The notes beneath the pieces are model-generated. The model saw only the letters and a program-made list of their open reading frames with translations. It was not told the origin of the DNA and ran no database searches. From the NCBI RefSeq assembly GCF_003334785.1, contig NZ_QOWV01000002.1: a DNA stretch of 64,000 nt; one strand, written 5' to 3'. This stretch comes from Escherichia coli (GTDB taxonomy: Bacteria; Pseudomonadota; Gammaproteobacteria; Enterobacterales; Enterobacteriaceae). Positions 537 through 21,589 of this stretch are shown here, one piece after another. Position 1 is the first letter of the stretch. The number at the start of each line of letters is the position of its first letter. Both the position numbers and the translations under genes were made by a program.

Positions 537-599
537 AATCAGGCCGGAGTGCTAAATACTCCGTAAACACGGTCGTACATCCAGCCGGTAGCCTGATTC
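537..599 (+). promoter_or_regulatory. iscR-iscS intergenic stem-loop structure
   Basis: GAATCAGGCCGG...CCGGTAGCCTGATTC long-range inverted repeat enclosing a second hairpin CGGAGT-gctaaat-ACTCCG. Confidence 0.6.
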
Positions 600-633
600 C
601 TTGCATTGAGTGATGTACGGAGTTTATAGAGCA

Positions 634-7231: not shown

Positions 7232-8008
7232 ATGTCCGAAACAAAAAACGAACTTGAAGACCTGCTGGAAAAAGCAGCAACTGAACCGGCGCACCGCCCG
7301 GCCTTTTTCCGTACTCTACTGGAATCCACCGTCTGGGTGCCTGGTACGGCGGCGCAGGGCGAGGCTGTGGTTGAAGATAGCGCGCTTGATTTACAGCACT
7401 GGGAAAAAGAAGACGGCACCAGCGTCATTCCTTTTTTCACCTCGTTAGAAGCACTTCAACAGGCGGTTGAAGACGAACAGGCATTTGTCGTAATGCCCGT
7501 TCGCACGCTGTTTGAGATGACACTTGGCGAAACGCTCTTCCTTAATGCCAAACTGCCAACCGGTAAAGAATTTATGCCGCGTGAAATCAGTTTGTTGATT
7601 GGTGAAGAGGGAAATCCGCTGAGCAGCCAGGAAATCCTGGAAGGCGGTGAATCGCTGATATTATCGGAAGTCGCAGAGCCGCCAGCACAAATGATTGATT
7701 CACTCACCACCTTATTTAAAACCATTAAGCCGGTGAAGCGTGCTTTTATTTGTTCAATTAAAGAGAACGAAGAGGCACAGCCTAATTTACTTATTGGCAT
7801 TGAAGCCGATGGTGATATCGAAGAAATTATTCAGGCGACGGGAAGTGTAGCGACCGATACATTACCTGGCGATGAACCAATCGATATTTGTCAGGTGAAA
7901 AAAGGGGAAAAAGGAATTAGCCACTTTATTACCGAACATATTGCGCCATTCTATGAACGTCGCTGGGGTGGTTTTTTGCGTGACTTTAAACAGAATCGGA
8001 TAATCTAA
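7232..8008 (+). CDS. sseB: serine-sensitivity enhancing protein SseB
   Basis: Track ORF 7223-8008 trimmed to ATG at 7232 (MSETKNELEDLL...), 258 aa; synteny pepB-sseB-ryfA-sseA. Confidence 0.9.
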   Translation: MSETKNELEDLLEKAATEPAHRPAFFRTLLESTVWVPGTAAQGEAVVEDSALDLQHWEKEDGTSVIPFFTSLEALQQAVEDEQAFVVMPVRTLFEMTLGETLFLNAKLPTGKEFMPREISLLIGEEGNPLSSQEILEGGESLILSEVAEPPAQMIDSLTTLFKTIKPVKRAFICSIKENEEAQPNLLIGIEADGDIEEIIQATGSVATDTLPGDEPIDICQVKKGEKGISHFITEHIAPFYERRWGGFLRDFKQNRII

Positions 8009-8010
8009 AA

Positions 8011-8031
8011 TATGCCGCCCAAAGGGCGGCA
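8011..8031. terminator. GC-rich hairpin ATGCCGCCC-aaa-GGGCGGCAT between the sseB stop and the small ORF stop
   Basis: Perfect 9-bp stem with a 3-nt loop; on the minus strand it is followed by the U/A-rich run AUAUUUUA. Confidence 0.5.
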
Positions 8032-8038
8032 TTCGGGC

Positions 8039-8176
8039 TTACTTGCTGCTCTGAAGGTTGTTAACCACCAGTAAATTGTCGCCGGAGAGACTCCGGTTAT
8101 TATTTACCTCGGTTAACAGCGCACCAGAAACAATAAGTACGATACAAAAGCACCGTATCTTCATTGTGCGGTCCAT
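8039..8176 (-). CDS. candidate small membrane protein encoded within the ryfA locus (45 aa from the first ATG, 41 aa from an internal ATG at 8164); hypothetical TimP-like toxin
   Basis: Manual translation of the minus strand: MDRTMKIRCFCIVLIVSGALLTEVNNNRSLSGDNLLVVNNLQSSK, stop at 8039-8041, followed immediately by a GC hairpin at 8011-8031. Below the ORF-track reporting size (shortest listed ORF is 60 aa). No canonical Shine-Dalgarno seen, so this is speculative. Confidence 0.3.
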   Translation of the reverse strand: MDRTMKIRCFCIVLIVSGALLTEVNNNRSLSGDNLLVVNNLQSSK

Positions 8177-8294
8177 GCGAAGACCGCATCACGACAGCAC
8201 CACTGGCGATATTGCCGCGATAGCAAGCGCTGTGAAACACCTGCATTTACGGCCACGGAACATCCTTTCCTAAAGCCAGCGCCCGTTTGCGAGA

Positions 8295-8491
8295 CGGCGG
8301 AAAGGGCCGCAGTGGATAATACACTAACAGAACAATAATAACTCTCTTTTGCTTGACAAAAAGAGAGTTACTGGCGAGTATTGTCTCCGCTGAGACGCGC
8401 TTGCATTACTACGGTAATACAACCTGCTGGAAAGGCCGCGAACCGGACCAGCAACAAAAAACCGCCTGATTTTGGCGGTTTTTTGTTTTTT
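8295..8491. repeat. ryfA-locus tandem module, copy 1 (~200 nt, ends in a bidirectional terminator)
   Basis: Aligns by eye to 8617-8810 at roughly 80-85 percent identity; shared blocks GGCGGAAAGGGCCG, ACTCTCTTTTGCTTGACAAAAAGAGAGTTACTGG, CCTGCTGGAAAGGCCGCGAACC, then a terminator. Confidence 0.7.
8455..8491. terminator. bidirectional intrinsic terminator (AAAAAACCGCC-tgatttt-GGCGGTTTTTTGTTTTTT)
   Basis: GC stem flanked by an A-run on the 5-prime side and a T-run on the 3-prime side, so it is functional on either strand. Confidence 0.75.
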
Positions 8492-8616
8492 AAAGGAAAG
8501 TGAATTTACATGTTTAAGTAATATCTTTTACCGGTTAGAATTTTTAATTTTGAGCAGGATTTGTTTATATTTGTCTGAATTCGGACTAATAAGCCAGGTT
8601 ATTTTATTACCGAACA

Positions 8617-8810
8617 CGGCGGAAAGGGCCGGTGTCGATAATACGCTAAATAAACAATAATTACTCTCTTTTGCTTGACAAAAAGAGAGTTACTGGTGAG
8701 TATTGTTTTGCTGTGAAGCACCTGCGTTGCTCATGTAACACAAGTCAACCTGCTGGAAAGGCCGCGAACCAGACTAGCAATAAAAAACCGCCAAATTCGG
8801 CGGTTTTTTA
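8617..8810. repeat. ryfA-locus tandem module, copy 2
   Basis: Diverged duplicate of 8295-8491, separated from it by a ~125-nt AT-rich spacer. Confidence 0.7.
8782..8810. terminator. bidirectional intrinsic terminator; ends the sseA transcript and module copy 2
   Basis: AAAAAACCGCC-aaatt-CGGCGGTTTTTT, 15 nt downstream of the sseA stop on the minus strand. Confidence 0.8.
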
Positions 8811-20360: not shown

Positions 20361-21479
20361 ATGCATAACCAGGCTCCAATTCAACGTAGAAAATCAACAC
20401 GTATTTACGTTGGGAATGTGCCGATTGGCGATGGTGCTCCCATCGCCGTACAGTCCATGACCAATACGCGTACGACAGACGTCGAAGCAACGGTCAATCA
20501 AATCAAGGCGCTGGAACGCGTTGGCGCTGATATCGTCCGTGTATCCGTACCGACGATGGACGCGGCAGAAGCGTTCAAACTCATCAAACAGCAGGTTAAC
20601 GTGCCGCTGGTGGCTGACATCCACTTCGACTATCGCATTGCGCTGAAAGTAGCGGAATACGGCGTCGATTGTCTGCGTATTAACCCTGGCAATATCGGTA
20701 ATGAAGAGCGTATTCGCATGGTGGTTGACTGTGCGCGCGATAAAAACATTCCGATCCGTATTGGCGTTAACGCCGGATCGCTGGAAAAAGATCTGCAAGA
20801 AAAGTATGGCGAACCGACGCCGCAGGCGTTGCTGGAATCTGCCATGCGTCATGTTGATCATCTCGATCGCCTGAACTTCGATCAGTTCAAAGTCAGCGTG
20901 AAAGCGTCTGACGTCTTCCTCGCTGTTGAGTCTTATCGTTTGCTGGCAAAACAGATCGATCAGCCGTTGCATCTGGGGATCACCGAAGCCGGTGGTGCGC
21001 GCAGCGGGGCAGTAAAATCCGCCATTGGTTTAGGTCTGCTGCTGTCTGAAGGCATCGGCGACACGCTGCGCGTATCGCTGGCGGCCGATCCGGTCGAAGA
21101 GATCAAAGTCGGTTTCGATATTTTGAAATCGCTGCGTATCCGTTCGCGAGGGATCAACTTCATCGCCTGCCCGACCTGTTCGCGTCAGGAATTTGATGTT
21201 ATCGGTACGGTTAACGCGCTGGAGCAACGCCTGGAAGATATCATCACTCCGATGGACGTTTCGATTATCGGCTGCGTGGTGAATGGCCCAGGTGAGGCGC
21301 TGGTTTCTACACTCGGCGTCACCGGCGGCAACAAGAAAAGCGGCCTCTATGAAGATGGCGTGCGCAAAGACCGTCTGGACAACAACGATATGATCGACCA
21401 GCTGGAAGCACGCATTCGTGCGAAAGCCAGTCAGCTGGACGAAGCGCGTCGAATTGACGTTCAGCAGGTTGAAAAATAA
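20361..21479 (+). CDS. ispG: 4-hydroxy-3-methylbut-2-enyl diphosphate synthase IspG (GcpE)
   Basis: 372-aa ORF; Cys ligands in CPTCSR and GCVVNGPGE. Confidence 0.95.
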
Positions 21480-21567
21480 TAACGTGATGGGAAGCGCCTC
21501 GCTTCCCGTGTATGATTGAACCCGCATGGCTCCCGAAACATTGAGGGAAGCGTTGAGGGTTCATTTT
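21480..21567 (+). ncRNA. sroE: SroE-like structured RNA in the ispG-hisS intergenic region (approximate)
   Basis: Position matches the reported SroE location; hairpins GGGAAGCG-cct-CGCTTCCC and TGAACCC...GGGTTCA followed by a T-run. Confidence 0.4.
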
Positions 21568-21589
21568 TATATTCAGAAAGAGAATAAAC

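Follow-up and report, generated by a model that had tools for sequence, protein, structure and literature searches.

The first 6 kb of the 64,000-nt window, the whole stretch of Escherichia coli DNA analysed here, contain the genes iscR-iscS-iscU-iscA-hscB-hscA-fdx-iscX followed by pepB, as seen in the list of open reading frames. The iscR coding sequence (162 aa) lies on the + strand at 34-522 and ends with a TAA codon at 520-522, which is followed by a second in-frame TAA at 523-525. The iscS coding sequence (404 aa, cysteine desulfurase) lies on the same strand at 634-1848. Both genes are given alike by the open reading frames and by the RefSeq annotation of the identical sequence, and between the iscR stop (522) and the iscS ATG (634) there is a spacer of 111 nt at 523-633, the length that a first-pass annotation made from the sequence had reported. 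The Shine-Dalgarno sequence of iscS, GGAG at 619-622 on the + strand, was read from the sequence 11 nt 5' of the AUG and is invariant across all element-bearing sequences described below. The segment 400-760 is 100% identical to E. coli K-12 MG1655, and megablast against 5426 complete E. coli genomes placed it in 5425, with a single occurrence in each and iscR and iscS as the annotated genes. The window has further Rfam matches, all to known E. coli small RNAs, namely ryfA (8007-8310, - strand, 315 bits), IS128 (8442-8650, - strand, 262 bits), and sroE (21479-21570, + strand, 117 bits).

The spacer itself matches Rfam family RF01517 (iscRS, 'iscR stability element') on the sense strand. The match at 523-632 is full-length, covering positions 1-110 of the 110-position model. 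Its cmscan score of 138.1 bits (E 2e-37) exceeds the gathering score of 40, and none of its pairs was marked as non-canonical. Locus, organism and sequence are the same as those of RF01517 and of the element of Desnoyers et al. (2009), and there is no difference of kind. The 111-nt iscR-iscS spacer is thus very probably the published iscR stability element with its RyhB-linked mechanism acting on isc mRNA. The element is a curated, named cis-regulatory RNA, and its identification here is correct, already known and ordinary. The first-pass annotation had read the region as the known structure of the isc operon, a reading upheld by the full-length family match, by the covariation of the helices, by an 8-mer complementary to RyhB on the iscS start, and by the account given in open-access papers that cite the original work.

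The most prominent feature of the spacer is an inverted repeat with arms GAATCAGGC at 536-544 and GCCTGATTC at 591-599, which are complementary at 9 of 9 positions and separated by 46 nt. The inverted-repeat pattern has one match in the 64-kb window and none in 100 shuffles. The core at 536-599 folds with -25.6 kcal/mol compared with a shuffle mean of -13.3 (z = -4.67), and a fold of 523-640, proposed earlier as a check on the structure, gave -31.5 kcal/mol (z = -2.66); in neither case was any of 200 shuffles as stable. Both the minimum free energy fold and the Rfam consensus, whose helices agree, describe a three-way junction on the + strand in which a long 9-bp stem, P2, closes two hairpins, P2a and P2b. 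The 5' arm of P2 (GAAUCAGGC, 536-544) pairs with its 3' arm (GCCUGAUUC, 591-599) according to both fold and covariation. Hairpin P2a (545-563) has the stem CGGAGU/ACUCCG at 545-550/558-563 and a loop at 551-557; its sequence is highly variable and its pairing is kept. Hairpin P2b (567-589) has, in the Rfam consensus, a stem at 567-572/585-589 with a bulged A569 and a 12-nt loop, UCGUACAUCCAG, at 573-584. The inverted repeat of the first-pass annotation is therefore the P2 stem, real in its arms although it starts at 536 and not at 537, and it encloses two hairpins instead of the one described. The 'CCGG...CCGG' that had been counted into the arms does not lengthen the long stem: C545-G550 is the 5' arm of P2a, and C585-U589 is the 3' arm of P2b. 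Two further helices are weaker. The outermost Rfam helix, P1, would pair AAUUC at 530-534 with GAGUU at 620-624, overlapping the iscS Shine-Dalgarno sequence, and a small hairpin, P3 (602-617), is predicted from 602-606 and 613-617 with -2.9 kcal/mol. The hexamer CGGAGU of the P2a 5' arm (545-550) occurs again at 618-623 in the iscS Shine-Dalgarno region, and its complement ACUCCG occurs at 558-563 and at 659-664, inside iscS codons 9-11.

The evolution of the structure was followed in 80 iscR loci (one genome per species) and in 73 contigs from metagenomes that had been retrieved by means of the iscS initiation region. From these, 43 distinct enterobacterial sequences were realigned to a covariance model built from the core group with the Rfam structure. 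An alignment of this kind is fitted to the structure and so favors it, which was countered by a control with slid pairing partners and by model-free analyses. Overall, 89.9% of the cells in the 43 sequences are paired, compared with 34-53% when the partners are slid by 1-3 columns. Changes on both sides were seen in 15 pairs, and none of 500 shuffles reached any of the five measures used. The signal is distributed over the three helices of the junction: P2 is paired in 99.5% of cells with double changes in 4 of its 9 pairs, P2a in 94.1% with double changes in 5 of 6, and P2b in 84.4% with double changes in all 5. The outermost helix P1 is paired in 72.6% of cells, and one of its pairs is broken in 38 of the 43 sequences; P3 is conserved in sequence and shows no covariation among them. 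P2, P2a and P2b of RF01517 are thus backed by the present covariation count, whereas P1 (530-534/620-624) and the small 3' hairpin P3 are unsupported by it. This audit of supported and unsupported Rfam helices is one addition of the present work. Independently of the covariance model, alignment with MAFFT and folding with RNAalifold for 17 genera recovered the long stem with two compensatory pairs and one broken cell, and when the 17 genera were folded as single sequences, most again showed this stem around two hairpins. In the MAFFT alignment itself, the variable region of P2a and P2b was misaligned, and RNAalifold therefore recovered only P2 and P3. Changes from U-A to U·G occurred in 15 of the 43 sequences and from C-G to U·G in 7. 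Since such U·G changes are tolerated only in the RNA of the + strand, selection acts on the + strand mRNA and not on the DNA or the opposite strand. The segment CUUGCAUUGAGU at 600-611, between the P2 stem and the block preceding the Shine-Dalgarno sequence, is 96% conserved in the core group and was unconstrained by the search pattern; it shares positions with the 5' end of the longest RyhB pairing predicted (606-615).

Variation also exists within E. coli. A blastn search with 11-mer words showed that, over 530-605, 1875 of 5425 E. coli genomes reach only 80-90% identity with K-12. In two strains sampled from this band, the difference is concentrated in the P2a apex (545-563) and the rest of the spacer is almost invariant. 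The apex is GGAGUGCUAAAUACUCC in the K-12 allele and GGGGCGUAUCGCGCUCC in the other, which is identical to the sequence of E. albertii. Both alleles keep the stem pairing despite the difference in sequence, and this two-allele polymorphism of one hairpin in E. coli is a second addition. In some strains and species, extra sequence is present between the iscR stop and the element, giving spacers of 170-280 nt compared with 111; the extra sequence of E. coli N96 resembles that of Citrobacter werkmanii.

Across the surveyed iscR loci, RF01517 was found only in the Enterobacteriaceae proper, namely in Escherichia, Citrobacter, Enterobacter, Pluralibacter, Pseudocitrobacter, and Superficieibacter, with weak matches in Cedecea and Shimwellia. 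The covariance model built in this study added divergent versions from Siccibacter, Mangrovibacter, and a 'Klebsiella sp.' The iscR-iscS spacer measures 27-33 nt in Vibrionaceae and about 50-70 nt in Yersinia, Serratia, and Hafnia, compared with 107-250 nt in Enterobacteriaceae. A block just 5' of iscS, GAAGUGAUGUACGGAG-N-GAGCAAUG, is also present in Serratia, Dickeya, Pectobacterium, Tatumella, Mixta, and Rosenbergiella, none of which carries the element. Because this block is common to families with no such element, the initiation region targeted by RyhB appears to be older than the protective structure. The confinement of the element to the Enterobacteriaceae proper, together with the apparently greater age of the initiation region, is a third addition. 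In different families of Enterobacterales, the iscR-iscS junction is occupied by two unrelated curated RNA elements, RF01517 and RF02783. The Yersinia codon that aligns with the iscS start of E. coli is TTA or ATA, and the conserved GAGCAAUG is found 20 nt upstream of it, so Yersinia IscS probably starts at that upstream AUG with a short N-terminal extension.

The predicted core of the RyhB pairing site is the 8-mer GAGCAAUG at 629-636 on the + strand, which covers the iscS AUG and is complementary to RyhB nt 40-47 (CAUUGCUC). The pairing is predicted to extend back to 610 (or 606) by way of GGAGU at 619-623 and GUGAUG at 610-615. The RyhB query was verified as 100% identical in E. coli genomes, where it lies between yhhY and yhhX, and it matched RF00057 with 83 bits. 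A plain RNAduplex scan with full-length RyhB gave meaningless duplexes of about -40 kcal/mol all over the operon. It was replaced by a scan with RyhB nt 31-72 that included the opening energies of both RNAs and covered positions 1-2700 (the 2.7-kb operon). In this accessibility-aware scan, the iscS initiation region (610-637) was the second-best RyhB site with -10.2 kcal/mol, and its raw duplex with RyhB has -24.8 kcal/mol. A site inside iscS, AACUUGAAGCAGCGAUGCGUGA at 1040-1061, scored marginally better (-10.4 kcal/mol) and is probably due to chance; energy alone therefore does not single out the initiation region. The RyhB-iscS interaction is listed as verified and was scored as conserved in 74% of 19 enterobacterial species, and the verified seeds of RyhB all lie within nt 34-55 (PMC3495738).

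Other identities for the spacer structure have been considered. An intrinsic (Rho-independent) terminator or attenuator, ending some transcripts after iscR, would yield a short iscR RNA with no need for a small RNA, and a stable GC-containing stem directly 3' of the stop codon is what such a site would offer. The stem is followed by CCUUGCAUUGAG and not by a U-tract, and for this reason the element is not taken to be a terminator. A scan also found no terminator-like site in 523-633, and accumulation of the iscR fragment depends on RyhB according to two papers (PMC12533949; PMC11572966), leaving termination extremely improbable. The scan likewise found no motif for an internal promoter in the spacer. 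The restriction of the element to one lineage, the variation of spacer length among families, and the terminal inverted repeats could also be explained if a REP-like or miniature mobile repeat had inserted into the spacer and served no specific function there. The element is single-copy, however: both megablast and 11-mer blastn detected it just once in each of 5425 E. coli genomes, and it has one match in the window, so it is not a REP. In addition, the compensatory changes and the G·U pairs confined to the + strand reflect selection on an RNA fold, and an origin as a functionless repeat is accordingly given very little probability. An intercistronic RNA thermometer comparable to the Yersinia IscS-1 ICR (RF02783), which would melt at 37 °C and open the iscS ribosome-binding site, has two points in its favor: RF02783 is the family found between iscR and iscS in Yersinia, Serratia, Hafnia, Photorhabdus, Dickeya, Mixta, and Brenneria, and folding predicts a largely paired Shine-Dalgarno sequence in E. 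coli. Nevertheless, RF02783 has no match in positions 1-2000 of the window even at E values up to 10, and the E. coli core, at -25.6 kcal/mol, has much too high a stability for melting at physiological temperature, so that temperature sensing is a very unlikely role for this element.

A further possibility is that the element also, or mainly, controls translation of iscS. Access of ribosomes and of RyhB would then be set by a pseudoknot between CGUACAUC and GAUGUACG, or by P1 or the anti-SD-like ACUCCG (558-563 or 659-664) acting on the Shine-Dalgarno sequence. Such control is compatible with a role in stability, and the two are not exclusive. Folding of 523-700 leaves the iscS Shine-Dalgarno sequence only 4% unpaired by prediction, which would agree with translational control. 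The part of the P2b loop at 574-581, CGUACAUC, is complementary at 8 of 8 positions to GAUGUACG at 612-619 on the + strand, which abuts the iscS Shine-Dalgarno sequence and belongs to a TIR block widely conserved across Enterobacterales. The duplex would have -12.4 kcal/mol compared with -2.9 for the competing P3, and few shuffled loops (0.9%) or random 12-mers (0.4%) do as well as this duplex. The P2b loop is also conserved, with a mean column identity of 92% in 27 core-group sequences, whereas the P2a loop has 51% and the junction 55%. In the loop-bearing sequences, 93% of the cells can pair, and 12 single changes are wobble-compatible. Against the pairing, 18 cells break it, and unrelated loops are present in the outlying element-bearing lineages Cedecea, Siccibacter, Shimwellia, and Mangrovibacter. 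Covariation is impossible because the 3' partner does not vary in any of the 17 genome sequences with the element, and in the metagenome contigs the search pattern itself fixed the 612-619 block. Most loci of Enterobacterales have the block as well, also in genera without the element, so its conservation is independent of the loop. Moreover, the pairing was noticed post hoc, and ViennaRNA cannot score pseudoknots. The Rfam consensus assigns no tertiary pairing to the conserved P2b loop, and no such contact is described in the accessible literature on the element. Searches for pairing of the loop with RyhB or with the 3' end of 16S rRNA gave only matches to the RyhB terminator stem or weak ones, and in species that lack the element, a search for a sequence complementary to the block preceding the Shine-Dalgarno sequence gave only short, unconvincing matches inside the iscR coding sequence. 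An 8-bp pseudoknot between the P2b loop (573-584) and 612-619, suggested by complementarity, is thus rather unlikely, and control of iscS translation as an additional or main role is similarly doubtful. If it forms, the pseudoknot would join the stability element physically to the ribosome-binding site of iscS and to the extended RyhB site in its 5' part. It may then extend the nuclease barrier towards the cleavage zone, and it may tune basal translation of iscS or compete with RyhB binding. This testable hypothesis for the conserved loop is a fourth addition.

The role of the element as a stability determinant for iscR mRNA is the preferred reading, and its mechanism reportedly comes from the study of Desnoyers, Morissette, Prévost, and Massé published in 2009 (EMBO J 28:1551). 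Applied to this locus, the mechanism would involve the 9-bp stem (536-544/591-599) closing the P2a/P2b junction with about -26 kcal/mol, located 14 nt 3' of the iscR stop. Under iron limitation, RyhB together with Hfq would pair with the iscS initiation region, with GAGCAAUG (629-636) as the core and an extension over the Shine-Dalgarno sequence, and translation of iscS would be blocked. RNase E and 3'-to-5' decay would then remove the iscSUA part of the mRNA, and the junction structure would act as a barrier that lets a short iscR-only transcript survive. That transcript would still be translated, and (apo-)IscR would activate suf. The structure and its covariation, the strand specificity at the RNA level, the family membership and the complementarity to RyhB were observed in the present analysis. 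Three points come from the literature, namely that iscSUA is degraded, that iscR mRNA accumulates, and that the structure is needed; they are given in two papers that cite Desnoyers 2009 (PMC12533949; PMC11572966). Both of these attribute the stability of the iscR fragment to a strong secondary structure in the iscR-iscS spacer. One states that RyhB cleaves the iscRSUA mRNA and leaves the iscR part unaffected (PMC12533949), and the other gives the same account and names RNase E (PMC11572966). Northern blotting has shown that overexpression of RyhB removes 90% of the iscRSUA transcript in its full-length form (PMC11572966). On the other hand, wild-type expression of iscSUA has been reported as roughly constant across iron levels (PMC12533949), and the physiological outcome is therefore more nuanced than a plain loss of iscSUA. 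Through IscR, the element ties iron starvation (Fur, RyhB) to the change of Fe-S cluster assembly from Isc to Suf, with consequences for aminoglycoside tolerance (PMC11572966; PMC6497325). It is a textbook case of a small RNA by which one operon mRNA gives two differently expressed parts, and finding it again from raw sequence is no new biology.

Within the Enterobacterales, the nearest comparison is with RF02783, the thermometer of Yersinia pseudotuberculosis, which like RF01517 lies in the intercistronic position 5' of iscS and has the block GAAGUGAUGUACGGAG...GAGCAAUG in common with it. It differs from the E. coli element in its different and much shorter spacer of about 50-70 nt and in a model that reaches about 100 nt into the iscR coding sequence, and the function proposed for it is temperature sensing and not protection of a fragment. 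Beyond the isc operon, stem-loop barriers that give differential stability within polycistronic mRNAs include the REP elements in malEFG and the pufBA-Q hairpins of Rhodobacter. In these systems, as in isc, a stable intercistronic structure shields the upstream segment from 3'-to-5' decay and expression becomes discoordinate. The isc element differs from them in being single-copy and not a REP, in forming a three-way junction and not a simple hairpin, and in that its effect is triggered by a trans-acting small RNA pairing just 3' of the structure.
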